Shown in pieces: positions 7,912-62,855 of a stretch of DNA of 64,000 nt (position 1 is its first letter; each line of letters starts with the position of its first letter). The notes under the pieces were generated by a model. It was not told the DNA's origin, searched no databases, and worked only from the letters and a program-made list of their open reading frames with translations. Origin of the DNA: a virus. The position numbers were made by a program, and so were the translations under genes. The DNA lies in IMG/VR virus record IMGVR_UViG_3300009149_000019, positions 1 through 64,000 of that record. One strand, written 5' to 3'.

Positions 7912-8490
7912 ATGAAGTATAAATTTTATCTTTTAGTTGTTATTTTCTCTGTTTCCGTTTCATGTGGTGAGATAGAAAGTCTGATAGCGAGACACCTTAT
8001 GGGTGCTGTTGTACAGGCAGCCACTACAGATACTATAGATACAAAAGAAGAAGACACAGACATAGATACAGTTAAAGAAAAGGCTAGGGGTAAGGGTAAT
8101 AATACCAGACACTCTGGAAGTTCCAATTCAGGATTTAGCTTCTACATCGATAATAATGGAAATTCGTCCTTTTCTTTTGGAACACCAAGTCATAATAATA
8201 ATAATACTCCTCACCATAATCAGACCAGCATGTCCTACATCCAACGAAAATACGGTGTAGACGGGAAAATAGTTCCCCTTGTCTATGGTGGACGCAAGGT
8301 TGGAGAGGCACTGGTAACTGGAACACGTGGCACAGACCTTCCTAAGGTAGAGGCAGTAGTACTTAAGTATGAAGGGGACATCGTGTTGATAATCCCTATA
8401 AGTGAAATGGGATACAGAGTTAAAGATATCACAGTATTTGCTATGGAAAATTATAACAATAGTAACAGTTATAGGAAAGAAGGGTCATGA
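7912..8490 (+). CDS. exported protein or lipoprotein
   Basis: MKYK plus hydrophobic core plus SVSC lipobox-like site; Asn/Ser-rich linker. Confidence 0.6.
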   Translation: MKYKFYLLVVIFSVSVSCGEIESLIARHLMGAVVQAATTDTIDTKEEDTDIDTVKEKARGKGNNTRHSGSSNSGFSFYIDNNGNSSFSFGTPSHNNNNTPHHNQTSMSYIQRKYGVDGKIVPLVYGGRKVGEALVTGTRGTDLPKVEAVVLKYEGDIVLIIPISEMGYRVKDITVFAMENYNNSNSYRKEGS

Positions 8491-9131
8491 AAAAGAAAAA
8501 AAGAAAGAAAATAGAAAAGAAGAGGAGGCATACGGTTACTAATGCAGACTTTGCTAAGGCGTGTGCTAATAATAATGTTGCATTGGTAAAGAAGTATGTC
8601 GAATGTGGCTTTTTTGAAGCACGACGTAATGGTATAAAAGCCGGAGAGCTATTTAATGTGCCGGGGTTTTTTATAATCGTTGCGAATGGACACTATGAGT
8701 TGTTTGATTACCTCATAGAGTATCTTGACGAGTTCTGCTCTACGTATGATCGTAGGCCAATGTATCACCCATCTTGTCTGAAAGAAGCGTTTATACAGGC
8801 TCAGCCGCTAATGTTTAGGAGGATACTTGGTGGGTTGATTACATTTGAGAACAGGCTAAACGTCTTTAGTGGTAAAAGTAGACTTGAGGCGATTAGCCTA
8901 TATATAATGACCACCTTTCCAACGGGTAACAACACCACCACTGTGTACAACAGGGTACTTCGTCAACACCTTTTACTCTTGTTTACAAGAGCGGAGTTGG
9001 TAAGGATGACAATGGATCATGCTAGTACAGAGGCAATGGCTGTCTTGGTAGATTTACTAAAAGATAACCCACAGGAGGAGAATAGTGTCAACAGAAAAGA
9101 AGAAAAGAAAGCTGCTGTTTTCAGTGACTAA
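8487..9131 (+). CDS. degenerate ankyrin-like protein
   Basis: ACANNNVALVKKYVECG and ANGHYELFDYLIE resemble ankyrin helices. Confidence 0.55.
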   Translation: MKKKKRKKIEKKRRHTVTNADFAKACANNNVALVKKYVECGFFEARRNGIKAGELFNVPGFFIIVANGHYELFDYLIEYLDEFCSTYDRRPMYHPSCLKEAFIQAQPLMFRRILGGLITFENRLNVFSGKSRLEAISLYIMTTFPTGNNTTTVYNRVLRQHLLLLFTRAELVRMTMDHASTEAMAVLVDLLKDNPQEENSVNRKEEKKAAVFSD

Positions 9132-9483
9132 GAAGGATTTTATTATTCAGGCCTACAAATCATCAGGGCCTGGTGGGCAGCATAGAAACAAAACTATGTC
9201 TGCGATACGCATGGTTCATCCAGAGTCTGGAGCTATGGCTTGCTCTGGTAATGAACGGTCACAGCACCAGAATAAACGGCTGGCCTTTAAGGCTCTTGTG
9301 GCTCGTCCTGAGTTTCAAAAGTGGATTAGGGTAAAAGCCGCTGCAGCTGGGTGTGATTTGCATGAGCTAGAGAGAGCCATCGAGAAGCAGGTTACTAACA
9401 TGATGGCAGAAGAGAATCTGAAAGTAGAAATTAGAGGGGAGGACGGAAAATGGGAAACCGCAAAGGAGCCTTTACAGGAATAG
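9085..9483 (+). CDS. class I peptide chain release factor GGQ domain protein (ArfB/PrfH-like)
   Basis: SSGPGGQHRNKTMSAIRMVHPESG...ERSQHQNKRLA; no codon-recognition domains. Confidence 0.9.
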   Translation: MSTEKKKRKLLFSVTKKDFIIQAYKSSGPGGQHRNKTMSAIRMVHPESGAMACSGNERSQHQNKRLAFKALVARPEFQKWIRVKAAAAGCDLHELERAIEKQVTNMMAEENLKVEIRGEDGKWETAKEPLQE

Positions 9484-9848
9484 AACAGCTCCACAGAACC
9501 ATGACAAAGCATGGCATAGTGCCGGCGACTACTACAGTTATGACTGATATTGCGACCAATATTACGATTCATCAGATACATGCGTATACAAGAGATAATG
9601 AACAAAAAACGGTTCTGGCAGCTACCAGGGGAAATGACCTACTCCACTTTTCGGTACATGATAGCTGGAATGGGTTTATTCGTTCCAGGGAGAGCCTAAT
9701 GTTCCGATTTCTTGACTACTATGCTGTTGTGTATTTTACGGATGGGTCGTGTTGTACAACACCCATACCCGAGGATACACCAGCGTGGGAACTGGAAGAC
9801 ATGGCTCTCTCTACATTCTTAGGAAAAGGGAGTATATATGCCAAATAA
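9450..9848 (+). CDS. hypothetical protein
   Basis: ORF filling the gap; start could be 9450 or 9501. Confidence 0.6.
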   Translation: MGNRKGAFTGIEQLHRTMTKHGIVPATTTVMTDIATNITIHQIHAYTRDNEQKTVLAATRGNDLLHFSVHDSWNGFIRSRESLMFRFLDYYAVVYFTDGSCCTTPIPEDTPAWELEDMALSTFLGKGSIYAK

Positions 9849-10017
9849 TGGTTGTACCTATAATCTTTATGAGTTTATGGAAGATCCAGAAGAACACATG
9901 GCAACAAAATGGAAAGAGGACCCAGACCTTTTGGTGTACGGACGATACATACGAACACCAAAAGGTGGACAGGTGTCTAGGTATCACACTATCCCAGCGT
10001 TTTGTTTTGCTGCATAG
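9838..10017 (+). CDS. hypothetical protein (59 aa)
   Basis: Not in the ORF track; GGGAG SD, MPNNGCTYNLYEF...AFCFAA*; ends just before the SD of the next gene. Confidence 0.55.
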   Translation: MPNNGCTYNLYEFMEDPEEHMATKWKEDPDLLVYGRYIRTPKGGQVSRYHTIPAFCFAA

Positions 10018-10026
10018 GAGGGTCTT

Positions 10027-23631: not shown

Positions 23632-25236
23632 ATGGTAACCGTGAGCTCTTTTACATATTTACAGCATAATAGTATGCTGGAAATTACCCTATCATCGGAC
23701 AATGACACCCCTCTTTCGGATAAGTGGTTAGCGCACCAAGATGGTCTATTTAGGGAGGGTGCCTCTGACTCATTCGAAGTAGTTGGTAGCAGCAGTACTA
23801 CACGGCTAACAGGTTGTTACAAAGCTCAAAAGGAGCTTCAGTTACTAGTACAAGTAAAGGAGAACGGACCTAATGACAGTGTTACTGATGTAACGTTAGA
23901 AATAGACTCGCTGGGTTTTATCCTTAAGGTTATTATCCATAAATATAACTGGAAGAAGGAGTACTACAAGGAACCATGCGACGTCCTTTACAGGGAGACT
24001 CCTGAGAAGGAGGCATTATTTAGAATGGTAGCAGGTAAACGTCTGTCTTCCGTGGCAGATACACTTTTGTTTATGGATAAAAGTGTATATGACTTACCAT
24101 GCTTTGCTAAGGCTATTTATTATAAAAGCCTTGCACAGGGAAACCTGGCGTCATTTCAGTTTACATACAGAAGCGCTGACCTTGCGCATAATGGCACCAA
24201 TAGGAGGTCATACCAGAACATGCTACACTTGCTGCCATTAGCAGAGGCAATGGTACAAAACCCAGAATCGCCTTTACTAAGGCGTGTTGTAAGCTCTGCA
24301 GGAAATGAAGGACACGCGATTCATTTCTTGTATGCACTTACACATGGGAAAGTGACCACTAAGAGGGCAGCTACTTATGGTGTAGGGCTTATAGTGGAGG
24401 CACGCGGTACTGTGTCTCTTGAGTTAGTAGAAGTGATAATGGAGTATATAGGAAAGCAAGGACTGAGCAGCCCCAGGCTACTCAACATGATTGTTAAGTC
24501 AAAACATGTTGGGAAGTTCATAAAGGCAAGCTCTGGAGAAGTGAGAGAAGATCTTATTAGCAAGTTCTCTGCCCTTAATGTAAGTGATATCCATGGAGAT
24601 ACTCTACAAGACCTCATGTTGCATGATTGTTTTGGGATACCAGAAGTGGTAGAAAAGGCAAGAGAGGTCTTGTTCTTTCTAATCACTTCCTGGGAAGACT
24701 TCCCTTATTTTGATGGTGATAGCCCTCCCAGGCCTAAGGTACACTATGAAAGTAAAGAGTCCTTCATTACCTTTGCTACTCGTGGGGAATGGCCACAAGA
24801 GTTTGAGGACATCTATCTTTTCTTCCCAACCACTAAGATAATGTACTATCTCTACAGGATAGAGGCAGGAGAGGCCGGGCTTATCACCTACTTTGAAGAT
24901 ACCTGGGTTCTAAGTCAACTAGTCAGCTCTGTAACTACTTATCCTAGATTATTGATGTGGTTCTTAGGGGTGTTTAGTAGAGTTTTATACTCTGAGGACC
25001 ATCTTGACATCCTGAAAGAGTGTCCTAGTCTAATGGAACTGCGTTCTGGGCTTTTGTATGAACGGGAGTTTCTCATAGGCACACATACGCCAACTATACG
25101 TAAGTTGATACATCTTCTTACTAACGACTTTAGCTGGTGTTGTGGGTACTCGCATCTAGGGCTAGTGTTGTCGATGGATGAGGCAACGGAAAATACGAGA
25201 ACTCTTTCTAATACTGCTTTAAGGCTAGAAAAATAA
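23632..25236 (+). CDS. hypothetical protein
   Basis: 534-aa ORF. Confidence 0.75.
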   Translation: MVTVSSFTYLQHNSMLEITLSSDNDTPLSDKWLAHQDGLFREGASDSFEVVGSSSTTRLTGCYKAQKELQLLVQVKENGPNDSVTDVTLEIDSLGFILKVIIHKYNWKKEYYKEPCDVLYRETPEKEALFRMVAGKRLSSVADTLLFMDKSVYDLPCFAKAIYYKSLAQGNLASFQFTYRSADLAHNGTNRRSYQNMLHLLPLAEAMVQNPESPLLRRVVSSAGNEGHAIHFLYALTHGKVTTKRAATYGVGLIVEARGTVSLELVEVIMEYIGKQGLSSPRLLNMIVKSKHVGKFIKASSGEVREDLISKFSALNVSDIHGDTLQDLMLHDCFGIPEVVEKAREVLFFLITSWEDFPYFDGDSPPRPKVHYESKESFITFATRGEWPQEFEDIYLFFPTTKIMYYLYRIEAGEAGLITYFEDTWVLSQLVSSVTTYPRLLMWFLGVFSRVLYSEDHLDILKECPSLMELRSGLLYEREFLIGTHTPTIRKLIHLLTNDFSWCCGYSHLGLVLSMDEATENTRTLSNTALRLEK

Positions 25237-25247: not shown

Positions 25248-26675
25248 ATGACAACCATATGGTGCTTACTTATTCCCCCAAGTGAATGTAAGTATCTTCA
25301 TAAAAAGATAGAAATGACTACAGTACTAATGGAAGAAAATGGGCATAGGCCCATTTTTTCTATCTTTGGGAGTGAGTTTCCAATAATACGAATACAGAAA
25401 AAGTATCCGTATTACCTAATTACTGTAGACAAAGAGGTACCCTTTGGGTGCACGGAGGTTACGTGCAATGTTACATTTACTCTATCCCAGATTGTGTGTG
25501 GGATTCATGTGAGGGTGCCAATAAGGAAGAGAGCGCTGTTCAATAGAAAGCAGGAAATTGACAGCATGAGCAGATCCGATGCGGTCCCTTACCTCATGCA
25601 TAAGTTAGACTATGGGATGAGTGTCTCGTATAAAGAGATGTATAGTGTGGTATCTACCCTGTTCTATAAGATAGATGCGGGGGCGATGACACACTACCTT
25701 TTTATTAAAAAGGTAGTTAGTGCTGGCTATAGCTCAAAGCTATTAGTGTGTTGTATTAATTACTGGGATAAGAACCACAGTCTCGGATCATTCCAAGGAC
25801 TTCCCCTCATAGCCGTGCTGGAAGCCTTATACGCTTTCGGTGCGAATCGAAAGCTTGTGGTAAAGGCAGTGGCTATCATGTTTAAGAAATTCCACATGTC
25901 TCATGTGATGCTAACAGACCATCAGTTTCCAGTGCCTTTCTTTAGGAAGCTTGGGTGTCCGAAGGAGCTTGAGTTTCTAATGATACATACTAGGAACGTG
26001 GAAAGCCTAGTAACGGACCTCTCGACCATAGCAACACCGGACAGCATCTATGGTGTTCTGAAGAATGGATCTTCTTTTTACTTAAGAAGATTAGCCAAGG
26101 AGACGGGTAATCATGATCTTGGGTTATGTAGCCTACAGACGGATAGCGCCCTAGGCTCTATCAGGGCTGCATACGATAGAAAACTAGACCTGAATGAGAT
26201 CATACCAAATGCGTACCATTCCTATGGCAAGGACGCACGGGCAACTATGATGGGTCTAATAACTGATAGTGTTCATCAGTGCTTATCTCGCACGAACATA
26301 TATGGTAGTTCAGAGGTGGCACTACGTTTTCTTCCGGAGAACCTATTTAGTACTGGGTGGCCGACACAAAACTCGCAAAAGTTTGTGGACATTCTAGAAA
26401 AGCTCTTACGTGGGCAAGCACATTTGCTTGACGATGAAGTGCTAAAGTACCTTCTTACTACAAACAATTCCTTTTCTAGTGATCCGTTATACAGGCACTC
26501 TGTATTACGATGTATCACTAATGATACACGGATAGCTCAGGTGTTACTCAGAGTCACCCCGGATAAGGGGGAGATTATAGCAGCATTTAGGAAAAAGAGA
26601 AGAACGTATAAAAATGCCTACGCTACTATGCTAAAGAGGGTTCTTAAAGAAAGAAAAAAGAGAAAGGAGAAATAA
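25248..26675 (+). CDS. hypothetical protein
   Basis: 475-aa ORF, GGAGG SD. Confidence 0.75.
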   Translation: MTTIWCLLIPPSECKYLHKKIEMTTVLMEENGHRPIFSIFGSEFPIIRIQKKYPYYLITVDKEVPFGCTEVTCNVTFTLSQIVCGIHVRVPIRKRALFNRKQEIDSMSRSDAVPYLMHKLDYGMSVSYKEMYSVVSTLFYKIDAGAMTHYLFIKKVVSAGYSSKLLVCCINYWDKNHSLGSFQGLPLIAVLEALYAFGANRKLVVKAVAIMFKKFHMSHVMLTDHQFPVPFFRKLGCPKELEFLMIHTRNVESLVTDLSTIATPDSIYGVLKNGSSFYLRRLAKETGNHDLGLCSLQTDSALGSIRAAYDRKLDLNEIIPNAYHSYGKDARATMMGLITDSVHQCLSRTNIYGSSEVALRFLPENLFSTGWPTQNSQKFVDILEKLLRGQAHLLDDEVLKYLLTTNNSFSSDPLYRHSVLRCITNDTRIAQVLLRVTPDKGEIIAAFRKKRRTYKNAYATMLKRVLKERKKRKEK

Positions 26676-27169
26676 TGGAATTAGAAAAAGAGAAACTAAA
26701 AGAAATGAAAGAATTTCTTACTAATAAGAGGAAGGAGTCTGGGTTTGAGTGGATAGTTAATAAAGACTCGGATAGTGTGGGCCCAAGACTGGCACACTAT
26801 ATCATGAACGACTGGAAGGACCTCGATTGGTATGCAGATGAAGATATAGCCATACTTCTAGACGGGTTTCGATACTCTAGTACCTTTGAAGACACTTCAC
26901 GTCTTTTTCATGCGCTAGTGTACGTGAGCATCTATTATATCCATGATGCATACACTAAAGAGAGGGTCATGGCTGGCGTTCGCAGAGCGCTAGGAAGCAT
27001 GTCCTCATCTAATCTTAAAATGTTATTGTTGTATAAAGAGGCACCAGAACGCCTTCAGGCGAGCATCTCTGAGCTTCTGAAGGAGAGGGGAAACGATGGG
27101 AAAAAAGAAAAAAAGAGTAAAGTTACCAGAAGAAGCGGCAAAGGAGATACTGCAGAGTCTAGAGGATAG
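26675..27169 (+). CDS. hypothetical protein, WxDxDWYxD paralog family
   Basis: DWKDLDWYADED. Confidence 0.7.
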   Translation: MELEKEKLKEMKEFLTNKRKESGFEWIVNKDSDSVGPRLAHYIMNDWKDLDWYADEDIAILLDGFRYSSTFEDTSRLFHALVYVSIYYIHDAYTKERVMAGVRRALGSMSSSNLKMLLLYKEAPERLQASISELLKERGNDGKKEKKSKVTRRSGKGDTAESRG

Positions 27170-27527
27170 AGGGTTCTTCACATTAATGGCTAAGGCTGGT
27201 GTAAACCCTACCTACTCTTCTGAAATAAAAGAAGTTGTCGATGACATGTTTACCTCAGGGTACACACACGGGCGCGAAGAGGGCTTTGATGCCGGATACG
27301 AAGACGGCTACAACGAGGGGAATGCAGACGGAAAAAAAGCAATGGAAGAGGTAGCGTATGAAATGGCCTTTACTGCCCTCAAGAAACAAATTGTAGATGG
27401 TGTTCTATATGCTTTATTAAAAGATTTAAACAAGGGCCATCCATCCATTATGAGGATGATCCTAATGAAGCATGGCAAAAATGATGTACTTAGGGAAGTC
27501 ATCAAAAGGGTCATGGCTGAAAAATAG
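27096..27527 (+). CDS. hypothetical protein with GxxxG repeats
   Basis: GYTHGREEGFDAGYEDGYNEG (FliH/Yae1-like periodicity). Confidence 0.65.
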   Translation: MGKKKKRVKLPEEAAKEILQSLEDRGFFTLMAKAGVNPTYSSEIKEVVDDMFTSGYTHGREEGFDAGYEDGYNEGNADGKKAMEEVAYEMAFTALKKQIVDGVLYALLKDLNKGHPSIMRMILMKHGKNDVLREVIKRVMAEK

Positions 27528-27539: not shown

Positions 27540-28451
27540 ATGACTGAAAAAGAATGTGAATTTCTAAGATTCTCCGAGGAATTTAGCTCTTGGGGGAAAA
27601 ATATATACGTTGGAATAAGAGACGTGTGGGCATACTGCACTATGATAAAGAACCTGATAGATTCCGGAGTGATTACTGTTGATGTAGAAAAACTGAAGAC
27701 ATTCAATCCCTCCAAATGCCAGAAAGCGATTGGTTGTATATACATTATGGCAACCAAGGATCCTATATTTAAGAAGAAGGGGCATATGGCTCTACGCATT
27801 GCGTACCATATGGCTACCGATTTCAAGGACAGCCCTCTGGACGATAAGAGTAGTTCTGTAAAGGAGCTTATCCTTTACCATAAGCCAGAGTTGAAACCAT
27901 GCTTCGTTAGTAAGGATTTTAAGAAGCTATCCCCATCACAGAGGAAGGAGACATATTTCCAGATTGGAAAAGAACATGCCAAAGGTGACGCATCGTACCA
28001 TGTCAGAGCATCCGCTTATTATCGTAAGGGGGGCTGGAGTGATTTTGACTGGTATACAGACAAAGAGTTGTCTTTAGTCAGTATGGGAATCTGGGAAGCT
28101 ACTCTGTTTAGTACTGAAGAAGCGCCAGCTACTTTTGTATTAAAGAAAATGCTTAAGACAAAGAGCGGGGTGAAGAAGATAATAACTGGAACTAGGGCAT
28201 GGAACATATGGTGTACCCAGAATCGACATTCTGAGAATTACCCTATTATGTGGCTCACCTTGAAGGACCAGTACATGAGTAAGGCCTCTACGTTTTTCTC
28301 GTACGCTTCCGGATCTATGCTAACCACGGCTGTCCTTAACTGTGGTAATGAGCAGGCTTCTGATGTTTTACAGAAGGCACTATGTATAAAAGCAGCTAGA
28401 AACGCTGCTAATGCTAAGGAGGGCTTATGCCAAACTGGTGTAGCAACATAG
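27540..28451 (+). CDS. hypothetical protein, WxDxDWYxD paralog family
   Basis: GGWSDFDWYTDKE. Confidence 0.7.
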   Translation: MTEKECEFLRFSEEFSSWGKNIYVGIRDVWAYCTMIKNLIDSGVITVDVEKLKTFNPSKCQKAIGCIYIMATKDPIFKKKGHMALRIAYHMATDFKDSPLDDKSSSVKELILYHKPELKPCFVSKDFKKLSPSQRKETYFQIGKEHAKGDASYHVRASAYYRKGGWSDFDWYTDKELSLVSMGIWEATLFSTEEAPATFVLKKMLKTKSGVKKIITGTRAWNIWCTQNRHSENYPIMWLTLKDQYMSKASTFFSYASGSMLTTAVLNCGNEQASDVLQKALCIKAARNAANAKEGLCQTGVAT

Positions 28452-29983: not shown

Positions 29984-30604
29984 TTGATGCTGAACCTTAT
30001 GTCACATGGATGTATGAGAAAGGATCAAGAGGAGCCCTTTGACTTTAGCACATTACAGGATCTTGGTATAGCTGCTAAGTTGGGAAGACTGGAGCCTTTT
30101 CTTTCTTTTTCCACAGATGCGCTGGTGTCTAGCTATCAAAAAAGCGCAGCTCATATGCTGTTGTGTGTGGCTGCGACTAATGGAAACACACAGGTGGTCT
30201 CACACTTACTTAATAGTGGAGTAGGCCCAAAGTCTAGGGACTGTTCCCCTTTTGTACACGAAGGTGGCTTGTCACCGTTAGCTCGAGCGCTCATCTTTGA
30301 CCAGGACGCGTGTGCTCTTGTTTTAGCAAGAGCGGGGGCGTGGCTAGATGACTACGATATTTTACTTGGAAGCTGCCCACTGCTTGTGCTAGTGTCTAGG
30401 TTCCCTACTGATGACTGCTATAGGTATGCTGATTACTTATTCGGAAATGTGGATAGTGCTCTAAAGTCGTTGTCTATCTCAGGTCGAGATGACACCGTCA
30501 GGATGGCAGCAATCGCAGTCCTACAGAGAAAAACTGTGGCCAACCACCACGCAAGGAGGTTTAATGGCTCGAAAACTCATCATCCTCTTCCAAAAACCAT
30601 CTGA
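29984..30604 (+). CDS. ankyrin repeat protein
   Basis: LCVAATNGNTQVVSHLLNSG, GLSPLARA...LVLARAGA. Confidence 0.8.
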   Translation: MMLNLMSHGCMRKDQEEPFDFSTLQDLGIAAKLGRLEPFLSFSTDALVSSYQKSAAHMLLCVAATNGNTQVVSHLLNSGVGPKSRDCSPFVHEGGLSPLARALIFDQDACALVLARAGAWLDDYDILLGSCPLLVLVSRFPTDDCYRYADYLFGNVDSALKSLSISGRDDTVRMAAIAVLQRKTVANHHARRFNGSKTHHPLPKTI

Positions 30605-31698: not shown

Positions 31699-31753
31699 CT
31701 TTTTCCTGTTGTATGGAGTATCCTAAGTGGCACATTACTTTGGAGGATCTTCT

Positions 31754-38456: not shown

Positions 38457-38474
38457 AGTAAGTAGGAGGATCTT

Positions 38475-39183: not shown

Positions 39184-39201
39184 TCTACAGAGGAGCTGTG
39201 T

Positions 39202-41127: not shown

Positions 41128-41175
41128 GTCCAAACACAATAATCGATACTACTATAATAATAAAGGAGTTGTGTT

Positions 41176-41742
41176 GTGGATTTAAAATTTTACCTAGAAT
41201 CACTATATCCCGGCCTGGATGAGGCTGGTGTATGGCATGTAGCAAAGGTCGTGCTTAACTACGACCATTTTCGGCAAGAGCCTCTTGTTACGAAAGCAAT
41301 GGGAATAAGCTCCAGGAACTGTGAGTATTGCAAGAGAGAGCAAGAGGAATCTAACCACAGACACGTATTCTGCCGACGCCATTTAATGCTTTATGAGCTA
41401 AAGAGGTATTACGTGACAGAAGCCAGCCCGGTATTTGTATACCGTGATCTATACATCTTTCCACAAAAGTATGCGGTCAAGTGGTTTGAGAATGTGGTAG
41501 TGTCCTCATTTTCATCCAGGTACGTATCAAAAAAAGATGTGTATTACCTACTGAAGTTCTCCTTCCTGAAGAGAGATCTTAGAGAAGTGACTTTCTCAAA
41601 TCTCATAAACATAGATGAGATTGATACACAGGAATCACTAAGTGTGTCCCTTGCTACTGCCAACCTTATTATGTCTAAAGACAATAGGGATGGATTTGTA
41701 GTAAGTACGTTTGACGATTTAGGGATACCAGAAGAGGAATGA
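41176..41742 (+). CDS. hypothetical protein with a Zn-finger-like motif
   Basis: CEYC...FCRRH. Confidence 0.7.
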   Translation: MDLKFYLESLYPGLDEAGVWHVAKVVLNYDHFRQEPLVTKAMGISSRNCEYCKREQEESNHRHVFCRRHLMLYELKRYYVTEASPVFVYRDLYIFPQKYAVKWFENVVVSSFSSRYVSKKDVYYLLKFSFLKRDLREVTFSNLINIDEIDTQESLSVSLATANLIMSKDNRDGFVVSTFDDLGIPEEE

Positions 41743-41785
41743 TCTTTTTTGAGTTTGGTACTTTGGGCATTTTAGAAAAATACCA

Positions 41786-41815
41786 TTGTACTTCCAATAT
41801 ACTCTCTGCTATACT
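41786..41815 (+). promoter_or_regulatory. sigma70-type promoter upstream of the RNA polymerase genes
   Basis: TTGTAC-18 nt-TATACT with an extended -10 TG. Confidence 0.55.
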
Positions 41816-41961
41816 GAGTGCGACCGACTACAAGCAGTAGTTGTATAACAATGCACTACTGCATAAATTTATGGCGGAGCGCTCGCCGGTAGCTGAGAGA
41901 CTTAAAAAAACAACAATGGTCTAACCACTCTTAGCTTCTATAGTGCACAGGAGGGTTTTCC

Positions 41962-44886: not shown

Positions 44887-44905
44887 GCACAGGAGGCTAT
44901 ACTAT

Positions 44906-47900
44906 ATGAACGGCATGAACATCTATCCTTTTGAGAGAACGTCACCCCTGCTGGACTACTATGCGTTTGACATTGACATCCTGCAGAAAAAGATCTTTAC
45001 ACTATTTAAGCACCTGGAGCATACAGGGCACGTGAAGGTCTTGAGCATCTCTCATAATCTGAAACCAAAGCAGACACGATACTGCTACCTGTATCCTACA
45101 GATACTTTTTCGATCAGAGTTAAGTGTACAATTGATGAGATTGACAAGACCTTCCTGCTGCACATCCCCAGGATGATAAATAGAAAGTTTACCATCAATG
45201 GGTATGAGAACATTCCCATTTTCCAGATGGTGGATCCTGCTGTTGTAGCCAGACCAGGTCATATCTTTGTAAGGTCAGCCTTTAACGATTTGTCAGTAGT
45301 ATATAATGAAAAACACTGCCAGGTCTACGCATTCAGGAAAAAGATGACACTGTCTACCATACTGTTTGCAGTGCGTGGATTCCGGAAGGCATGTAAATAT
45401 TTTGGGGTGAAAGTTAGTAAGGTCAAAAGCTTCACTAAAGGAGACTCCAGAGCAAACAAGATGATCTTAAAGGACCAGTGTATAGAGATCCTAAACATGG
45501 ACGCACTTGATCCAATAGGGCAGTTGGTATTTAGGACAGCATGTTATGAAAAGTACAAGGACGTCCTTGAGACATTCGGAACGGACGAGTTCTTTATTGG
45601 AATGCTAGGTAACCATTTTTTTGATAAGCGGAACTTCATGAAGAAAGGTGAAGAGATCCTTGAGAGTTTTAAGACTGCTTTCTTTGATCCGATCACAAAA
45701 GAACAGCTTAACTATAACGGGGATTTCTTCAAATTCATGGTTGATCTTCTCACACAGTACCTGAACACTCAGGCTTATGACTTCTTAGATCTTGAGCGTA
45801 GAGTGATCAGGCTGGAAGATTATATCCTTGTTCCATTATTTCAAAAGATATTCTCAATAGTCAGGGTAAGTATGAAATATCCTCAAAGGGTACATCATAT
45901 AAAAATAAAGCCTGATGAGATGACAGGCTCTTTGTCTAAGCCAGAGTTACAGCCTTTAATTCAATATGACTCTTCTCTTAATCCGATAGGAGAGGTTTCA
46001 ACTTTCTTTAAGTGTTCCATCTTTGGGATCAGTGGCCTGCAGAAGAGTCAAGTGTCAATTGCGATGAGAAATATTCATCCATCTTACTACGGGTCTATTT
46101 GTCCAATTGATACCCCAGATGGTCCCAGTTGTGGTGTGGTTATGAACCTGGTTCCGACTGCACAGCTTAACATTGAAGACGGTAAGTTGGAGATAGATAG
46201 AGATCACGAGACCAGAGACATAGTTTCCCTACCAGTAGCCACCATCCCATTTTTGGAAAGAAATGATGGTGTCCGTCTCCAGATGGGAGCTAACCAGAGT
46301 GAGCAGTCAAAGATACTTGATGTCACCGAGCTTCCGACTATTCAGACAGGAGCAGAGCATCTGGTAGCAAAAATGTCTACTTTTGTTAGAAGAAGCCCAG
46401 TAGACGGTATTATTTCCTTCATTAACAAGAACTTCATTGTTGTAAAAGACGAGGCTGGTAAGCATCACCTGGTTGATGCTCGTGACGAGTTCACGAGAAG
46501 GAAAATGTTCAAGTCGTTTGACCACCAGGTAACCATAGGCCAGAAGGTCAGAAAAGGGATGATCTTATCTGCTGACAGTCGGTGTATCAAGGATGATAAG
46601 GTTACTCTTGGTAGAAACTTAAAAACCTGCTTTTTCTGTTATGAGGGCAACACTTACGAAGACGCGATTGTTGTATCAGAAGAAGCAGCAGAAAAGATGT
46701 CACATTGGGAATACAACGTGACAGAGCTAACGATTGGAAGGAATGAGACTTTGCGTGAATATAATGGAAAGTTCTTTCCTGCGGTAGGAGAAGTTACCAA
46801 AGACGGGGTGCTCACTGAAAAGCAAACGATAGACCCGGAAATACGGTTCCTGTTTGACTACGACAGGGAGACAGAAAAAATAGCAGTGCCTCCCGGTTCT
46901 GAGGTTGTTGATATTCGTGTGTATGTTAATAATGAGCACGAGCTACAGCCTGAGCTTAAGGAGTACATAGATGCCCTGGTTTGTCAGCAAATGACAGATG
47001 AGCGTTCTCAGTTCAACACCATAAAAAGGTTTGTTGAGGATCCGGACCTGCTGGCATACCATAAGAATAATACATTAAAAAGTCACCGTATAGGAAGATT
47101 TTACGGGGTTGACCATTTTGAGGGTGTCCTATTCAGAATCTTTACAAAAAGACGGTGTACTCTGATGAAGGGTGACAAACTTGCTAACAGGGCAGGAAAC
47201 AAGGGCGTTGTGTCTGCCATTCTTCCAGTTGATCAGATGCCAAGAGGAGAGGATGGGGTACCCTTCGAGATCTGCTTGAATCCAATGGGTATTATTACCA
47301 GGATGAACACCGGCCAGTTATTTGAAATGACACTGGGAACTGCATGTAAAGAGATCACAAAGCGTATGCAAACCCTTCCTGAGGACAGGGCTCTGGACTT
47401 TATGCTAGAGATGATTGAGCTAGTTGATAATACAGAGGAGCACTGGTATTCTATCCAGGCTAAGGATCATGTTAGTTCACTAGAACCACATGCAAAAACT
47501 GCGCTGTATAACAAAGTGTGTACTGATGGGCTTCAGCTATATCAGCCACCATTTGCGTCCATCACCCTGGATAACTACATGAAATTGGTGGAGATACTTG
47601 GAATTTCTGAGAAGGAACATCTATTTATTCCTGAGCTTAACACAACAACGTCTGACCCTGTTGGCTGTGGATACACTTACGTACTAAAGCTTCTGCATAC
47701 ATCAGAAAGTAAAATTCATAGCAGAAGTATAGGTCCATATTCTCAGATTACTGGACAACCTTTACAAGGTAAGCGTAACCAAGGCGCTCAGCGCTTAGGT
47801 GAGATGGAAATTTGGGCTCTTGCTGCACACGATGCCGACGCCACCGTTAAGGAGATTTTAACCATTAAGAGTGATGATATTGCTGGACGAAAAGCAATGA

Positions 47901-48028
47901 TCAGGAACTTCTTAGACGCAACTCCTATTTCGATGTCCTCCTCAGAAGAGTCTCTATCTAAGACTATTTTTATGGCATACATGAAAGGCCTTATGATAAA
48001 ATTAGAATCTTCGGAGGTAGGTCTATGA
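44906..48028 (+). CDS. rpoB: multisubunit RNA polymerase beta subunit
   Basis: RNIHPSYYGSICPIDTPDG, MGANQ, YEDAI, GDKLANRAGNKG, RMNTGQ, KLLH, GAQRLGEMEIWAL. Confidence 0.97.
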   Translation: MNGMNIYPFERTSPLLDYYAFDIDILQKKIFTLFKHLEHTGHVKVLSISHNLKPKQTRYCYLYPTDTFSIRVKCTIDEIDKTFLLHIPRMINRKFTINGYENIPIFQMVDPAVVARPGHIFVRSAFNDLSVVYNEKHCQVYAFRKKMTLSTILFAVRGFRKACKYFGVKVSKVKSFTKGDSRANKMILKDQCIEILNMDALDPIGQLVFRTACYEKYKDVLETFGTDEFFIGMLGNHFFDKRNFMKKGEEILESFKTAFFDPITKEQLNYNGDFFKFMVDLLTQYLNTQAYDFLDLERRVIRLEDYILVPLFQKIFSIVRVSMKYPQRVHHIKIKPDEMTGSLSKPELQPLIQYDSSLNPIGEVSTFFKCSIFGISGLQKSQVSIAMRNIHPSYYGSICPIDTPDGPSCGVVMNLVPTAQLNIEDGKLEIDRDHETRDIVSLPVATIPFLERNDGVRLQMGANQSEQSKILDVTELPTIQTGAEHLVAKMSTFVRRSPVDGIISFINKNFIVVKDEAGKHHLVDARDEFTRRKMFKSFDHQVTIGQKVRKGMILSADSRCIKDDKVTLGRNLKTCFFCYEGNTYEDAIVVSEEAAEKMSHWEYNVTELTIGRNETLREYNGKFFPAVGEVTKDGVLTEKQTIDPEIRFLFDYDRETEKIAVPPGSEVVDIRVYVNNEHELQPELKEYIDALVCQQMTDERSQFNTIKRFVEDPDLLAYHKNNTLKSHRIGRFYGVDHFEGVLFRIFTKRRCTLMKGDKLANRAGNKGVVSAILPVDQMPRGEDGVPFEICLNPMGIITRMNTGQLFEMTLGTACKEITKRMQTLPEDRALDFMLEMIELVDNTEEHWYSIQAKDHVSSLEPHAKTALYNKVCTDGLQLYQPPFASITLDNYMKLVEILGISEKEHLFIPELNTTTSDPVGCGYTYVLKLLHTSESKIHSRSIGPYSQITGQPLQGKRNQGAQRLGEMEIWALAAHDADATVKEILTIKSDDIAGRKAMIRNFLDATPISMSSSEESLSKTIFMAYMKGLMIKLESSEVGL

Positions 48029-48483
48029 CAAAAAAGAAACTGCATCTTATTCTTAACAACCATGAAGGCACCATTATTATTGCTGGGCATGTGCCACTAT
48101 CTTCGCAAGCCCACAGTGGAATCAGGCTATCATCCTCCAAAAAAGGAGAAGCCCTGGTAAGTACAGCTCTTGACTCGATATCTTTCCTTTCGAGAGCTTC
48201 AGTGCTTAAGGAACTTAACCTTAGTAAACATATGACCAAGGGGTGTGTTTCTGCTTTGGTAAATGTTCCATGTACCTACCAAATTACGGTAAAGAAGACA
48301 CTTCTGGTTTCTGGAGAAATAGTATCGTTGCACAGCATTAACATTATCTCTCCTGGGGTGAATACCGTAAACGTCTTGTATGTTAACAGGGTAGACATCT
48401 CAGATAAACTTACTGAATTTTTTGCTACTCTGGAAGATGTGGAAGAACTGGAACAGGGAGGCATTAATGGCAATGTCCTCTAA
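48025..48483 (+). CDS. hypothetical protein coupled to rpoB
   Basis: ATGA overlap with the rpoB stop. Confidence 0.7.
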   Translation: MTKKKLHLILNNHEGTIIIAGHVPLSSQAHSGIRLSSSKKGEALVSTALDSISFLSRASVLKELNLSKHMTKGCVSALVNVPCTYQITVKKTLLVSGEIVSLHSINIISPGVNTVNVLYVNRVDISDKLTEFFATLEDVEELEQGGINGNVL

Positions 48484-48796
48484 TCTTAGCTCTTTAGGTA
48501 AAGCATGCGGCTTGGGTAGTGGTGCTCAGACATCTGGAACGGTGGCTACGTGCAGTAGTAGTAATATTGGTACGTATTATGCAGGAAGTACATACACAAC
48601 AGTTTCTTATCCTTCGGTAGAAGAGGTTACCGAACTCAAAGAGACAGTAGACTTTCTGTCACACATGATTGTGTTACTTGCCCCTACAGCTCAACTTAAG
48701 ATAATGCTTCTTTTGCCTAAGACACCTGAGATAGTAAAAACAGCAATAAGGGAAAGACTTAAGATTCCTATGGATAGCCAGGAGGGAGGACTATAA
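48467..48796 (+). CDS. hypothetical protein carrying the shared C-terminal motif
   Basis: ATG 48467 after GGGAGG. Confidence 0.65.
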   Translation: MAMSSNLSSLGKACGLGSGAQTSGTVATCSSSNIGTYYAGSTYTTVSYPSVEEVTELKETVDFLSHMIVLLAPTAQLKIMLLLPKTPEIVKTAIRERLKIPMDSQEGGL

Positions 48797-49275
48797 TGAC
48801 TAGTGATAAATCCTTAAAAACTCATAAGAAATGGGAGCAGCGGCTTCGTTACTACAGAGAGTGTAACTTTTCTGATAATGATGCAAAGAAGGATAAGCAC
48901 GCAAGCATTAGGAGTCGTTTCTACGCAGCAGGTGGATGGACAGATCCTGATGCAAAAAAGGATAAAGATCATTTGATTAGGGTAGCCTACTACTCTGTGA
49001 AAGATTGGACAGACTTCGACTGGTATGTAGATTCAGATCTTGAAATAGTTAAAATGGGTATTGCTTCCTGTAGCAGGTTTAAGGACAGCACCAATCTGTA
49101 TAAGGCGCTAGGTCGAGTGTTTGAGGAAAAATCGTATAACTATGCTATAAAGCAATTAAAATTAGCTCTTACAGTTGTTCCTAAGGCAGTGCTACTTCGG
49201 TTATCCATGAAGGTCCTCGCAACTGATCCCAGAGTAAACGTGGTACTTCAAGAGATACTAACCTCGAAGACATGA
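48796..49275 (+). CDS. hypothetical protein, WxDxDWYxD paralog family
   Basis: GGWTDPDAKKDKD...DWTDFDWYVDSD. Confidence 0.7.
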   Translation: MTSDKSLKTHKKWEQRLRYYRECNFSDNDAKKDKHASIRSRFYAAGGWTDPDAKKDKDHLIRVAYYSVKDWTDFDWYVDSDLEIVKMGIASCSRFKDSTNLYKALGRVFEEKSYNYAIKQLKLALTVVPKAVLLRLSMKVLATDPRVNVVLQEILTSKT

Positions 49276-51728: not shown

Positions 51729-52322
51729 ATGACAGAGAGCTTGATTGACTTAAATGAGCGTTTGTGGCAGGCAGTTATGGTAGACGCCGTGGAGGAGGCA
51801 AAATTTCTTATACAGTGCGGAGCTGATATTGGTTACATGATGGCTGATCGCTCCCTCTTAGATGTAGCGGTTTCAAAGGGGTGCGTTAACGCTGTAAAGC
51901 TTCTCCTCAAAGCAGGGGCTGATGTTAACAGCATGTTTTATTGTACTACTACAAGCATCGTCTTAGCTTGTGAGCTGGGCAACAAGGAGATAGTGGAGAC
52001 GTTACTTGAGGCAGGTGCTGATGTTAACGATGTTGGGGTGAGTGGATTATCTCCTCTTATAGCAGCATCTGCTTTTAACAAAATGGATCTAGTGTCTTTA
52101 TTGTTGGAAAGAGGAGCATATCCTGACATAAAAGATCATGATGGAAGGACTGCACTGTTTTATGCGTGCCGACACGGCAGTAAAATGGTAGAGGTACTCC
52201 TCAAGTATGGAGCAGACCCTTCAATAGAGGATAAATCAGGAAACACCTGTCATGATCGTATCTTATGTAAAAATAATGACATCTATAAGCTACTGAGGGA
52301 AGCACTACCGAAAGAACTGTAG
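51729..52322 (+). CDS. ankyrin repeat protein
   Basis: About 5 repeats, including LLKAGADVN, GLSPLIAA and GRTALFYAC. Confidence 0.95.
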   Translation: MTESLIDLNERLWQAVMVDAVEEAKFLIQCGADIGYMMADRSLLDVAVSKGCVNAVKLLLKAGADVNSMFYCTTTSIVLACELGNKEIVETLLEAGADVNDVGVSGLSPLIAASAFNKMDLVSLLLERGAYPDIKDHDGRTALFYACRHGSKMVEVLLKYGADPSIEDKSGNTCHDRILCKNNDIYKLLREALPKEL

Positions 52323-52399: not shown

Positions 52400-52633
52400 T
52401 TGATAGAACTATTAAAAGCAAGATGCCAAGAAGACGAGGCGGTGTTTATTCCTATTCAGAACATTGGTAACATTTCTGTTATAAAGGAAGAAGGCACTGG
52501 AGTAGAACCACAGTTCTCTATTTTGTATTTTGACAAAAGAGGGCAGGTGATTACGAAAAAAGAAGGATTCGCATCATTCTCTCAGGCAGTTACTGCCGTT
52601 GAGAGGGCAGGACTAGTTATCACTATTGAATAA
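52400..52633 (+). CDS. hypothetical protein
   Basis: TTG after GGAGG. Confidence 0.6.
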   Translation: MIELLKARCQEDEAVFIPIQNIGNISVIKEEGTGVEPQFSILYFDKRGQVITKKEGFASFSQAVTAVERAGLVITIE

Positions 52634-52641: not shown

Positions 52642-53283
52642 GTGGGTATGTCTAGCTACGAGCGATGTTGCTATGCTGCCCACATAGAGTATGTTCGTAT
52701 TCGATCAAAGAGATCTCCGAAAGGACTAGACAAGTATAGGATGTGGGATAGCAAAAGACACACGTTTTTCGGAGACAAGTGTTGGAAAAACAGAACTAGG
52801 CGTATTAGACAATGGGATATAGATTCAAGTAGAGATAAGCCCCTATGGTTTCTGTATAGACATATAGGAGACTGGTGGTCCCCTGCTCCTATGAGACGGT
52901 GGTCGGAGTTTCTTGAGAAGAATCGTAAGCAAAGTATTCGAAATAAGTTTTGGCCTGAAATTAGAGAGCTAAATCGCTCTTGGAAAAAGATAGAGACAAT
53001 GATGGTGGGGCTGGCTACTACGCTACCAGAGGCTGCTATATTGTTGGAGGAGTTTCTAGACATAGAAGATTCGTTGTTAGTTTTTAATAAAAAGGCGGTA
53101 GACCCTGAGGATGACACAGAGGTATTCAAGGAAGCGTTTAGAAAAATAATTAGGATTTTGATTAAGCTTCCTCCAGCTTACTTTACTAGAGCTGTGTTGT
53201 TTAACGACCTTGGTATACCTGGTTACTTGGTTGGCGAGGTTAACCAAAAGTTGACAGATCAAAGACAACTTGATACTGTTTAA
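52642..53283 (+). CDS. hypothetical protein carrying the shared C-terminal motif
   Basis: 213-aa ORF with a Trp/Arg-rich N-terminal half. Confidence 0.7.
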   Translation: MGMSSYERCCYAAHIEYVRIRSKRSPKGLDKYRMWDSKRHTFFGDKCWKNRTRRIRQWDIDSSRDKPLWFLYRHIGDWWSPAPMRRWSEFLEKNRKQSIRNKFWPEIRELNRSWKKIETMMVGLATTLPEAAILLEEFLDIEDSLLVFNKKAVDPEDDTEVFKEAFRKIIRILIKLPPAYFTRAVLFNDLGIPGYLVGEVNQKLTDQRQLDTV

Positions 53284-57050: not shown

Positions 57051-57446
57051 ATGTCAAGCTTGAAAAAATATTTAGACTGTTTTATTGTATCTGTGCCTAC
57101 TTTCCATGTTTATATTCCAGCTGAGCACATCATGCAGATAGGTGGGATAATTAGTGAGAAAAGTTCCAATGGAGAAACTATTTATATTATTAAACTTCAT
57201 CTTAAAGACATTGACAGTCCTACGAAACTCCAAGTGGCAGACGTAGATGACGCTAGAAAGGTTATAACTCTTCTCTATAAACAGCTAAGTCGTTATCATT
57301 TATTTAAGAATGTGATTTCCATGATGGGATCAGTTCCCCCATCAGTTTTAAAAAACATGCTGTTAAGCTTAGATGGGGAAGATCCATTAAAAGATATGAT
57401 TGTTGCAACACTGTCAACTCAGGAACGAGAGGAAAATAACAAATAA
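57051..57446 (+). CDS. hypothetical protein carrying the shared C-terminal motif
   Basis: GGAGG SD; N-terminal half resembles 52400-52633. Confidence 0.7.
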   Translation: MSSLKKYLDCFIVSVPTFHVYIPAEHIMQIGGIISEKSSNGETIYIIKLHLKDIDSPTKLQVADVDDARKVITLLYKQLSRYHLFKNVISMMGSVPPSVLKNMLLSLDGEDPLKDMIVATLSTQEREENNK

Positions 57447-60521: not shown

Positions 60522-60869
60522 ATGGAACTATTTTGTCCTTATTGTGGAGAGAAGACACAGTTCATTGCAGGTGTCCATGTCTCCGAGAGTTGGCTTGTAT
60601 CAAATGATGGAGAGTTTACTGAACCCGTAGATAATGGAAACAATAATGTGATTAGGGGCCCGTTCGGCTTTGAGTGTGCTAACTGCCAAATGCCTGCAGT
60701 TGATCTTGACAAGAGCTACAAAGTTGCGATAGCTGCTTATAGGAAGTATTATAAGAAATGTAATCCTCTCCCAGACTGTGCTATTAAGGAAAAATTGCTG
60801 TCGCAAGATATTTGTGAGGTAGAAAGGGAAGCATTAGCTTCTCTGTTAAAACGTAAAAGGAGAAGGTAA
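60522..60869 (+). CDS. Zn-ribbon protein carrying the shared C-terminal motif
   Basis: CPYC...CANC. Confidence 0.7.
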   Translation: MELFCPYCGEKTQFIAGVHVSESWLVSNDGEFTEPVDNGNNNVIRGPFGFECANCQMPAVDLDKSYKVAIAAYRKYYKKCNPLPDCAIKEKLLSQDICEVEREALASLLKRKRRR

Positions 60870-61855
60870 TGGCGTCATCAAAGAAAAGTAGAAGGCACCG
60901 GGTACAGGCTTCATATGCGAGTGCACTCTTTGGGTATATACATAAAGCATCAGACGCAGTAAGAAACATGCCACAGAAAGAGAGTGACCAGCTATCTAAA
61001 TGTTTTGACATTATTACGGATTGTGCTTTAGCCCTACCTGCCGATGTTAGGAAGGATATAGCACGCAAATGGCTCCAGTGGGCGCCTATTGACATGTGTC
61101 AGCCAAAAGGGCTGCTACCTCTTATTAGAGACGGATTAATACTGGGATCTGACTTACAGCATACGGGGTCTCCGTCAATCCTTTATAAAATTATAAAGTG
61201 CTTACCTAAAAAAATAGAGGCGGGTACCTTATCGGTGATCAGAGAGCTTCTATCAACTGGGGCATGTCCAAATGAGGTGTGTGACTACGTCTCTCTACTA
61301 GAGATTGCTACCACTCGCAATGTAATAGAGGTGGTAAGGCTCTTACTTGATGCTGGTGCAAATCCAGAGTGTGATACTAGGTCCGCACCGTCTCAAGAAA
61401 GGGAAGGAGGTCCAATTGATATTGCGTTATACCATGGGTTTATTGAGTGCGCCACTTTACTGTATGAGGCTGGAGCTCCTTTAGCAGTAAATGTTACTGA
61501 AGGATCACATACTCCTGTAGTAGTTGGCACTAGTTTATGTGGTCCACCTAGAACCATAAAGACAGCTATGTGTATGGCTTACTGGATTAAGCAGGAGAAG
61601 GACCGGGGTGCTGCGGGGCATGGTATTGACAATCTAGAGTTAAACATCGTTGCACGCTTACTAGTTCAACATGTTTTAGTAAAATATCCACCAGCCCCCA
61701 CGTTAAAAATTCTAAGTATTCTGTTCCCACAGAATGGTTCTTCGGTTATTAAAGCATTTACTTTAGATAAAGATCCGGCTATTAGGGAGGCTGCTGTAGC
61801 GCTTCTTATGTACAGTGATACCTATCCTAAAAATAAGTTGCAAAAGGAAAAATAG
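60869..61855 (+). CDS. ankyrin repeat protein
   Basis: ELLSTGACPN, VVRLLLDAGANP, PIDIALYHG. Confidence 0.85.
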   Translation: MASSKKSRRHRVQASYASALFGYIHKASDAVRNMPQKESDQLSKCFDIITDCALALPADVRKDIARKWLQWAPIDMCQPKGLLPLIRDGLILGSDLQHTGSPSILYKIIKCLPKKIEAGTLSVIRELLSTGACPNEVCDYVSLLEIATTRNVIEVVRLLLDAGANPECDTRSAPSQEREGGPIDIALYHGFIECATLLYEAGAPLAVNVTEGSHTPVVVGTSLCGPPRTIKTAMCMAYWIKQEKDRGAAGHGIDNLELNIVARLLVQHVLVKYPPAPTLKILSILFPQNGSSVIKAFTLDKDPAIREAAVALLMYSDTYPKNKLQKEK

Positions 61856-61896
61856 TTATGCTACTATTAAATAATAAGTTGGGGGAAGGGGAATAT

Positions 61897-62079
61897 ATGA
61901 ACAACGTACATACTGCTACAGTACAGAAAAATTTGTCGGGGATGACATCAAAAAAGCTTGTGTGTCTTTTGTGTACTACTGTGTTACCACGGGAGACGGT
62001 TATTGAGATAGAGCGTATTCTTTCTCAGAGAAAGTCTTCTGGAAAGTTTACATTCTTTTCAGCAAAAACAAGGAGATAA
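61897..62079 (+). CDS. small protein consisting largely of the shared motif
   Basis: ATG 61897 after AAGGGG. Confidence 0.55.
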   Translation: MNNVHTATVQKNLSGMTSKKLVCLLCTTVLPRETVIEIERILSQRKSSGKFTFFSAKTRR

Positions 62080-62082
62080 ATA

Positions 62083-62274
62083 ATGCACGAAAAAATACCA
62101 TTTGCTCTCCTTAACGAGGAGATCAGTGATCTTTCTGCTATGGAAGAAGCCCTTAGGGCCCTTCAGGATGATCACCCGGATGACCTTGACTTAGAGCTTA
62201 CTTTGGAACAAACCATTTCCAGAAAGATATACTTGGAAAATGTGCTTGTACGACTAGTGAAGGAGGCCTCATGA
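62083..62274 (+). CDS. small helical hypothetical protein
   Basis: AAGGAG SD; coupled to the next gene. Confidence 0.65.
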   Translation: MHEKIPFALLNEEISDLSAMEEALRALQDDHPDDLDLELTLEQTISRKIYLENVLVRLVKEAS

Positions 62275-62855
62275 AGGGAAGGATTTCTCGCTGGGCCTAC
62301 ATTATTTTAGTACTTGTTGGTACGGCCGTTAGTGTTGGGATGAGCATCTATCTCTGTAAATGCATGCAGGTCCTTTCCATGCCCTGGCCGTGCTTCCTGT
62401 TCTTTAGTTGGGCTGTTGGTACATCAATCCCGTTTTGGATAGGTGTTACTATGAGGCGTGCTCTTTATGATCCGGATGAATCCACATATGGAAAGATTTG
62501 GGGAGATACTATGTCTGTGGGAGAGGTGTCTCTTCTCGTTAGAAGCTTACCAGACCGTTACCTCAAAGCTATAAGTTTGAGCTCAACCATTCCCCCTCTT
62601 CTGAGGGATGTAGTGGCGTTTGAGCTAGTGCTTAGAACAAAGAAGGGTACTAATGAGTATTCGGGCTTTGTTCATACTATGGTATTGGTACGTAATATAT
62701 CTAAAATAGTCGAGGGGTGGGGTGTTATATTTGTAATAGGCGGATTACCTCTAATGGCCCTGGGTCTAAGTTGGCCTTTATTTGTTGGTATATCCCTCGT
62801 CTCCCTAGGTATTGGCTTTACTGTCATGTCTCCCTTCTCTTCTTTCACAATTTAA
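62271..62855 (+). CDS. membrane protein, 4 TM segments
   Basis: Two TM pairs flank a soluble loop that carries the shared motif. Confidence 0.7.
   Translation: MKGRISRWAYIILVLVGTAVSVGMSIYLCKCMQVLSMPWPCFLFFSWAVGTSIPFWIGVTMRRALYDPDESTYGKIWGDTMSVGEVSLLVRSLPDRYLKAISLSSTIPPLLRDVVAFELVLRTKKGTNEYSGFVHTMVLVRNISKIVEGWGVIFVIGGLPLMALGLSWPLFVGISLVSLGIGFTVMSPFSSFTI

Follow-up and report, generated by a model that had tools for sequence, protein, structure and literature searches.

A recurrent three-helix module on accessory proteins of a large phage and its plausible role as a docking handle

Evidence for a shared module

Do the assorted accessory proteins of a large phage share a small domain, and what would such a domain do for them? 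The question is raised by a 64,000-nucleotide stretch of viral DNA (the window), which is the first 64 kb of the 84,002-bp IMG/VR virus record IMGVR_UViG_3300009149_000019 (G000), itself estimated to be about one-third complete. A sequence-only reading of the window had proposed that about 14 unrelated accessory proteins carry a C-terminal motif of ~30 amino acids (aa) and two helices, a candidate sorting or docking tag. All 14 quoted peptides are present in the named open reading frames (ORFs) at the places given, and the eight considered strong align almost gap-free. We searched the 116 proteins of the whole 84 kb, which includes 20 kb past the window. The module is genuine and conserved as protein; that its carriers share a lineage-specific domain of ~45 residues, most likely a common protein-protein handle, is the reading we favor, with a probability of about 0.5.

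When the alignment was extended upstream, the two-helix outline gave way to a module of ~45 residues and three helices (H0-H1-H2), because an amphipathic helix, H0, precedes the other two in nearly all copies. The H0-H1 junction is usually Pro, Ser, or Asp, with Pro in only 34% of copies. H1 closes with three hydrophobic residues (L-L-L/F), the last of these columns being Leu/Phe and hydrophobic in 100% of copies, and a short polar turn leads into H2, which has a nearly fixed Arg/Lys early (82% of copies) and a fixed Leu late (97%). No Trp is conserved. A disordered charged tail of 0 to 50 residues follows H2. An AlphaFold2 (AF2) model of the 45-residue piece of carrier 48467 (carriers are named by ORF start), built with 28 homologous segments, has a predicted local distance difference test score (pLDDT) of 88 and a predicted TM score (pTM) of 0.65; it bears out the helical unit, again with three helices rather than two, and the isolated unit is predicted to fold autonomously.

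Hold-out tests with hidden Markov models (HMMs) were carried out with the target and its same-genome paralogs taken out of training. Two profiles were used, a shorter one and one extended by the upstream helix, and the yardstick was a natural null of 235k aa, drawn from the flanks of distant relatives and from phage phiKZ, in which the highest score was 7 to 8.5 bits. With the extended profile, scores were 15.2 bits for 48467, 13.2 for 57051, 12.6 for 74920, 12.4 for 62271, 12.2 for 26675, 12.1 for 75354, 11.4 for 27186, and 7.6 for 48796. The singletons and a family with a serine-rich N-terminal leader scored 11.4 to 15.2 bits, and their tests are clean because the training set holds none of their homologs. 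A new carrier at 69397-70614, outside the training set, was matched by the full profile at 10.5 bits.

Unbiased discovery arrived at the same module. Position-specific scoring matrices (PSSMs) were grown greedily with BLOSUM pseudocounts, with one member per paralog family and a seed at every third position (8106 seeds), and each cluster was scored as the sum of its prospective addition scores. The best cross-family cluster in the proteome was this module, at 106.2 bits, or 103.5 bits after member 80354, the tail of a gene of the W family described below, was merged into that family. Control clusters reached ≤95.4 bits (unrelated, same proteome), 93.0 bits (phiKZ, 90 kb), and 98.6 bits (shuffled proteome). 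The hold-out scores are stronger evidence than the margin of this cluster. A zero-or-one-occurrence-per-sequence expectation maximization search with small pseudocounts overfitted; it returned the NSSSS leader, ankyrin repeats, W repeats, and then chance motifs, and never this module.

Conserved Leu and Lys residues use all of their codons freely, and third positions are the least informative, so the constraint acts at the protein level; a DNA-level repeat is ruled out on the same grounds. For six of the eight de novo members, the module falls in the final quarter of the protein (binomial P of ~0.004). The proposed C-terminal placement thus held for most copies, but not for the leader family, where the module lies near the N terminus, or for 62271, where it is internal. 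As the sequence-only reading had noted, the core enzymes show no copy: in a profile scan of the genome itself, none rose above noise.

The module recurs in the only known close relative, IMGVR_UViG_3300009149_000020 (G001), an 82.8-kb IMG/VR contig whose RNA polymerase (RNAP) β subunit is 60% identical to that of G000; the core block is syntenic, and the accessory genes are mostly different. A profile built from window copies found four G001 sites (per-genome E of 5e-4 to 7e-3), and an HMM trained on the window only picked out two proteins of G001 (15.9 and 11.9 bits, versus ≤7.8 for decoys). In the expanded families of G001 (11 ankyrin proteins and 13 or more W proteins), reading the C termini turned up the module, with a charged tail after it, in no fewer than 6 ankyrin and 10 W members; at least 17 G001 proteins in all have it at the C-terminal end, and carriers make up ~14% of G001 ORFs. 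Aligned with hhalign, 12 segments from G000 and 16 from G001 matched with a probability of 92% over 35 columns in register, at an E of 6.5e-7 that is somewhat optimistic because the G001 segments were chosen knowing the pattern. Iterated HMMER from 10 window copies did not recruit G001 variants, in which F replaces the last L. The de novo search within G001, with one member per family, was not significant (98.4 versus ~96); nearly all carriers there are W or ankyrin paralogs.

Database comparisons indicate that the module is an undescribed, lineage-specific protein domain. In Pfam, neither whole carriers nor 40 isolated units (12 + 28) matched any family recurrently. HMMs for F-box, F-box-like, and PRANC (PF00646, PF12937, and PF09372) matched none of 15 whole carriers at E ≤1 and none of the 12 + 28 units at E ≤10; HEAT-type HMMs (PF02985, PF13646, PF03130, and PF13513) matched 1 of 28 units, at an E of 0.19, and no whole carrier; and the SOCS_box model matched neither whole carriers (E ≤1) nor isolated units (E ≤10). 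PHROGs had nothing for the module. Profile searches of the PDB gave nothing convincing, the best being designed ankyrins through four weak repeat matches summed. Fold searches of the isolated unit (Foldseek and VIA) produced ties only, with a best Z of 5.2.

Copies in the window and their carrier families

Among the 14 copies originally listed, six pass hold-out or de novo discovery (26675, 48467, 57051, 62271, 27096/27186, and 60522), four are recovered by family alignment, by recruitment, or in a single test (48796, 27540, 60869, and 29984), and four are without support and look like chance (61858, 52642, 8487, and 23632). Counted over the whole record, 13 solid and ~6 weaker carriers account for 11 to 16% of ORFs. 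The sites in the window are as follows.

26960..27094, + strand: module of W protein 26675-27169; hold-out 12.2 bits versus null maximum 8.5, de novo cluster, W-alignment register; followed by a 26-aa basic tail.
27396..27524, + strand: module at the extreme C terminus of singleton 27186-27527; hold-out 11.4 bits versus null maximum 7.9.
28290..28397, + strand: degenerate module of W protein 27540-28451; hold-out of -0.1 to 1.5 bits, insignificant by itself; the family alignment puts it in register with the modules of 14 W paralogs.
30431..30544, + strand: probable module of ankyrin protein 29984-30604; 11.7 bits with a PSSM grown from G001 ankyrin copies, HMM hold-out negative.
48641..48775, + strand: module of singleton 48467-48796, 10 aa before the C terminus; hold-out 15.2 bits (the best) versus null maximum 7.9; top match of an HMM trained on G001 only (10.7 bits).
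49138..49272, + strand: module of W protein 48796-49275; hold-out 7.6 bits; AF2 helices at residues 118-126, 130-140, and 145-158.
52221..52319, + strand: possible module closing ankyrin protein 51729-52322, absent from the original list; de novo cluster, weak in hold-out (2.6 and -2.5 bits).
57294..57428, + strand: module of singleton 57051-57446; hold-out 13.2 bits versus null maximum 7.0, de novo cluster.
60729..60863, + strand: candidate module of Zn-ribbon protein 60522-60869; recruited by the greedy de novo cluster (15.9 to 16.4 bits), failing HMM hold-out (0.4 to 1.2 bits).
61694..61828, + strand: module of ankyrin protein 60869-61855; 14.9 bits with the PSSM from G001 ankyrin copies; hold-out 6.4 bits with the shorter profile (one null hit) and 3.1 bits with the extended one.
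62508..62642, + strand: internal module of membrane protein 62271-62855, in the loop joining hydrophobic segments and with 72 to 74 residues after it; hold-out 12.4 bits versus null maximum 7.8, de novo cluster.
61927..62046, + strand: proposed copy in 61858-62079, unsupported; hold-out -3.6 and -2.6 bits, never recruited.
53152..53217, + strand: proposed weak copy in 52642-53283, unsupported; -1.5 and 2.5 bits, equaled by at least 12 null hits.
8967..9074, + strand: proposed weak copy in 8487-9131, unsupported; hold-out -0.4 and -2.3 bits.
25129..25233, + strand: proposed weak copy in 23632-25236, unsupported; no HMM alignment at the site.

About half of the carriers are paralogs of two repeat families, ankyrin and "WxDxDWY" (W); the module is also on unrelated singletons, in one membrane protein loop, and in the third (leader) family. 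The description of the carriers as unrelated therefore applies to the singletons, whose N-terminal parts have no mutual similarity, but not to 26675, 48796, and 27540, which are W paralogs, or to 29984 and 60869, which phmmer places in the ankyrin family. Singleton 27186-27527 corresponds to the ORF first listed as 27096; the upstream part of that longer ORF overlaps 26675-27169. Its N-terminal half matches phrog_4785 (E of 3e-6) and, weakly, a Yae1_N GxxxG-type motif, and it is neither W nor ANK. Singleton 57051-57446 is without a Pfam or PHROG match. It had been taken for a paralog of 52400-52633 that differs in carrying the motif, a relationship not borne out by BLASTP, which found no alignment at E ≤100.

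An all-against-all search placed five proteins of the genome in the W family, including 26675, 48796, and 27540. An AF2 model of 48796 built with 15 paralogs (pLDDT 92.2, pTM 0.84) consists of four 23-residue short-helix/long-helix repeats, two more helices, and the module as the closing helices. Its nearest solved folds are the alphaRep 8aw4_A (Z of 8.1), 1LRV (Z of 7.7), and YibA (Z of 7.5), aligned to residues 156 to 159; helical repeats of any kind commonly reach Z values of 7.5 to 8.1, and Foldseek E values were ≥0.09. Neighbors of the W protein in the ESM Atlas are HEAT clusters over residues 1 to 159 (TM of 0.5 to 0.59), and the Atlas returned no feature hits. The W family is thus predicted to fold as a HEAT/LRV-like helical solenoid. 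In the family alignment, the linker between the W cap and the module varies from 0 to ~60 residues.

When the W alignment was run with HMMER against the full set of 1.84 billion representatives, only 86 proteins matched. One of these, P0047, is a G001 gene, and several homologs from elsewhere (P0063, P0035, P0025, P0021, and P0024) retain the module after the W cap; P0021 had no match in IMG/VR. Since these newly found homologs keep it, the module is ancestral to the W family. In that family, alignment and model together indicate that the module is an ancestral, integral end of the fold and not an appended tag. The proposal of a modular element stands for a shared, mostly C-terminal unit on otherwise unrelated proteins.

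Several further features of the W genes were observed. They lie at 48796-49275, 26675-27169, and 27540-28451 in the window and at 71815-72876 in G000, and their 23-residue repeats have an acidic loop, I/V-R, and Y-Y; some homologs have at least 10 tandem repeats (P0019 and P0023). Past the window, the ORFs at 79943-80308 and 80354-80569 form one W-family reading frame (G000 79943-80569; L003:5943-6569), split directly after the DWY cap by a single in-frame TAG (G000 80306-80308; L003:6306-6308). Homology to the W paralogs runs on across the stop; the TAG may be read through, reflect an error of assembly, or be a nonsense mutation.

In the ankyrin family, phmmer linked 51729, 68451, 6836, 58584, 60869, and 29984. 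Pfam found Ank-type repeats in the N-terminal part of 60869 (Ank, E of 2.5e-5), while the Ank_2 match of 29984 (E of 0.001) falls below the curated cutoff; 8487 has only a weak Ank_3 match (E of 0.021) and no phmmer link. The weak copies of 60869 and 29984 resemble the G001 ankyrin subtype and were recruited from the G001 ankyrin copies. The leader family, with the N-terminal pattern MKxRxGFVxNSSSS, sits in the 20 kb beyond the window (G000 74529-75689; L003:529-1686), and in three of its six proteins H1-H2 directly follow the leader. In a distant phage (L004), whose copy of this leader family neighbors a radical SAM gene, the module is absent.

Weighing the function of the module

The presence of the module on W, some ankyrin, small unrelated, membrane-loop, and leader-family proteins fits a small shuffled domain. 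One constant unit would in this way be joined to variable binding parts (ankyrin, solenoid, and Zn ribbon). This architecture, together with the 11 to 16% of genes that carry the module, makes a handle its most likely job; the occurrence on non-repeat proteins and the predicted autonomy of the unit point in the same direction, and a docking-handle function is plausible. The unit might bring the variable proteins to a single docking partner of phage or host origin, or the carriers might pair with each other by forming helix bundles.

Several results weigh against a common handle. No binding partner emerges from these data. The conserved columns are mostly hydrophobic-core positions plus one Arg/Lys, as expected of a purely structural element. 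The 48796 model packs the module as a continuation of the solenoid, and in the pair formed by 48796 and its G001 ortholog, r78636, which keeps the module, the module is by eye no better conserved than the rest of the protein. No module rose above reversed decoys in the 55 metagenome loci (207k aa) that surround the RNAP genes of distant relatives (27 to 35% identity). The de novo margin over the highest null, a shuffled run, is only ~5 bits and modest by itself, and to this is added the optimism of the hhalign E value. The margin also bears on whether the copies are a chance resemblance among composition-matched amphipathic helices picked by eye, as do pairwise phmmer comparisons of 36-aa windows, in which motif pairs were at noise level, and the 4 or 5 of 14 listed copies that fail all tests. 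Against this, at least six independent proteins lie far above the natural null in hold-out, G001 provides an independent replicate, distant W homologs keep the module, and AF2 is confident when given the alignment; chance is therefore an extremely unlikely explanation.

The main rival to a handle is a structural end piece: a terminal helical cap that would stabilize repeat solenoids (W and ankyrin) and small domains, with no common partner, inherited within families and occasionally copied. This is possible, and the W proteins speak for it, since every member, distant ones included, has the module, the model makes it the last helices of one compact solenoid, and both the solved folds and the Atlas clusters align through it. 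The mainly hydrophobic conserved positions agree. Comparison with HEAT-like proteins (PBS-lyase HEAT-like, YibA, and alphaRep) and 1LRV is similarly divided. The W carrier superposes on them with its module included, at Z values common among helical repeats, and in the module, as in their units, a hydrophobic helix leads through a polar turn with Asp/Asn to a helix B that has a conserved Arg/Lys; unlike theirs, it occurs as a single copy per protein and not in a tandem array, in the W family after repeats of a different 23-aa pattern, and its Pro-to-Asp and Asp-to-Arg spacings differ from the canonical HEAT consensus. However, the module also ends non-repeat proteins that offer no solenoid to cap (57051, 48467, 27186, and the Zn-ribbon protein 60522), lies in the loop of a membrane protein, follows linkers of variable length, and is predicted to fold alone, and what recurs across families is a sequence pattern and not merely a shape.

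Two readings would give the module a known eukaryotic or targeting role. The sequence-only reading had drawn the analogy to F-box/PRANC ankyrin proteins, and the architecture is apt: ankyrin repeats followed by a constant C-terminal helical box are the layout of the PRANC proteins of poxviruses (PMC3185573), and PRANC is present in phage WO (PMC5062602). The likeness to PRANC and truncated F-box proteins (poxvirus, phage WO, and Orientia) extends to diversified ankyrin families, a box of 30 to 50 aa, and the logic of a variable binder on a constant handle. If taken literally, the analogy would have the module recruit targets to a eukaryotic cullin ligase, as F-box/PRANC or SOCS-box adaptors do, in a phage of an intracellular symbiont. 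We also read the hydrophobic spacing past the junction Pro as resembling F-box helix 1, and a Skp1-F-box chain, 5ibk_E, is among the fold matches (VIA; Z of 4.1, root mean square deviation of 2.0, 39 aa), but it ties with ~50 unrelated chains. In ankyrin-SOCS (ASB) proteins, too, a C-terminal three-helix box follows ankyrin repeats. The BC box of SOCS has the pattern [STPA]-L-x3-C-x3-[AILV] and is accompanied by a Cul box. An L-x-x-x-C is present in four G001 ankyrin copies only, while over all copies the Cys column is Leu/Met/Cys, and no Cul box was seen. For neither box did Pfam find sequence membership in the searches above, and the module differs from PRANC and F-box in having no conserved LP or Trp, in occurring on non-ankyrin families, and in being internal at times. 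Shine-Dalgarno-like motifs precede 72% of starts, versus 17% of random positions, and genes are translationally coupled; the ribosome-binding sites indicate a prokaryotic host, for which Skp1 is not the expected partner, and no secretion signal was noticed. An adaptor to a cullin ligase is therefore very unlikely.

Alternatively, the module could be a virion-loading or compartment-targeting signal that sends its carriers to a compartment made by the phage or has them packaged in the capsid and later ejected. Its terminal position, its diverse cargo, and the disordered tail after it would suit such a signal, and large phages package many internal proteins. Encapsulin cargo-loading, microcompartment encapsulation, and T4 capsid-targeting peptides are likewise terminal, transferable elements on unrelated cargo. 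These are, however, short and unstructured elements of 10 to 20 residues, a single helix or extended, often cleaved and tied to a shell or capsid gene, whereas the module is predicted to be a folded three-helix unit of 45 aa and is sometimes internal. One carrier is an integral membrane protein, the leader family has the module near its N terminus, and no capsid, portal, (prohead) protease, or compartment-shell gene was recognized in the 84 kb or in G001. We consider targeting quite unlikely.

A more specific form of the common handle is a substrate-adaptor system of the lineage's own, in which dozens of diversified binders of the ankyrin and HEAT/LRV-like kinds, along with some small proteins, would share one constant box, and the box would deliver different host targets to a single machine, for example, a phage AAA+ ATPase or a host protease. 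We consider this a doubtful extension of the favored reading. If true, it would be a prokaryotic-virus counterpart of the F-box, SOCS-box, and PRANC systems. Eukaryotic viruses hijack ubiquitin ligases through a variable binder and a constant box; no comparable system in phages of prokaryotes is known to us. Should the module be a common handle, ~11 to 16% of the genes of these phages would together form a single system that pairs a constant box with variable binders, and finding one partner would make the targets of many orphan accessory genes testable together. Even if it is purely structural, the module counts as a small domain not described before, and with it comes a rare repeat family (86 of 1.84 billion) that is now open to modelling and searching.

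Genomic setting and minor observations

All genes of G000 lie on the + strand. Those in the window include a family A DNA polymerase fused to a uracil-DNA glycosylase domain and unsplit RNAP β′ and β, and further genes encode RtcB, three AAA+ proteins (2415, 14620, and 53270), a vWA protein (17450), an SMC-like ATPase, and type IIA topoisomerase subunits. Because of the Shine-Dalgarno-like motifs, gene expression is taken to be prokaryotic and the virus to be a large phage. The syntenic replication/transcription block of G001 corresponds to window positions 31727-48028, and G001 spends about one-fifth of its genes on its two expanded families (11 ankyrin and 13 to 14 W).

The SMC-like ATPase of G001 (r67275_69197) has a strong internal match to the window-trained profile at 67668-67766 (aa 132 to 164; 16.9 bits), and its window ortholog (39202-41127) has no match. 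Either a true insertion or a false positive from coiled-coil sequence could account for the G001 match.

An alignment query of IMG/VR returned no further close relatives. RNAP β (window 44906-48028) has 56 metagenome relatives: besides two at 58 to 60% identity, there is a broad set at 27 to 35% identity, on contigs of up to 321 kb. Sequence relationships of this kind suggest a wide clade of large phages with unsplit β and β′.

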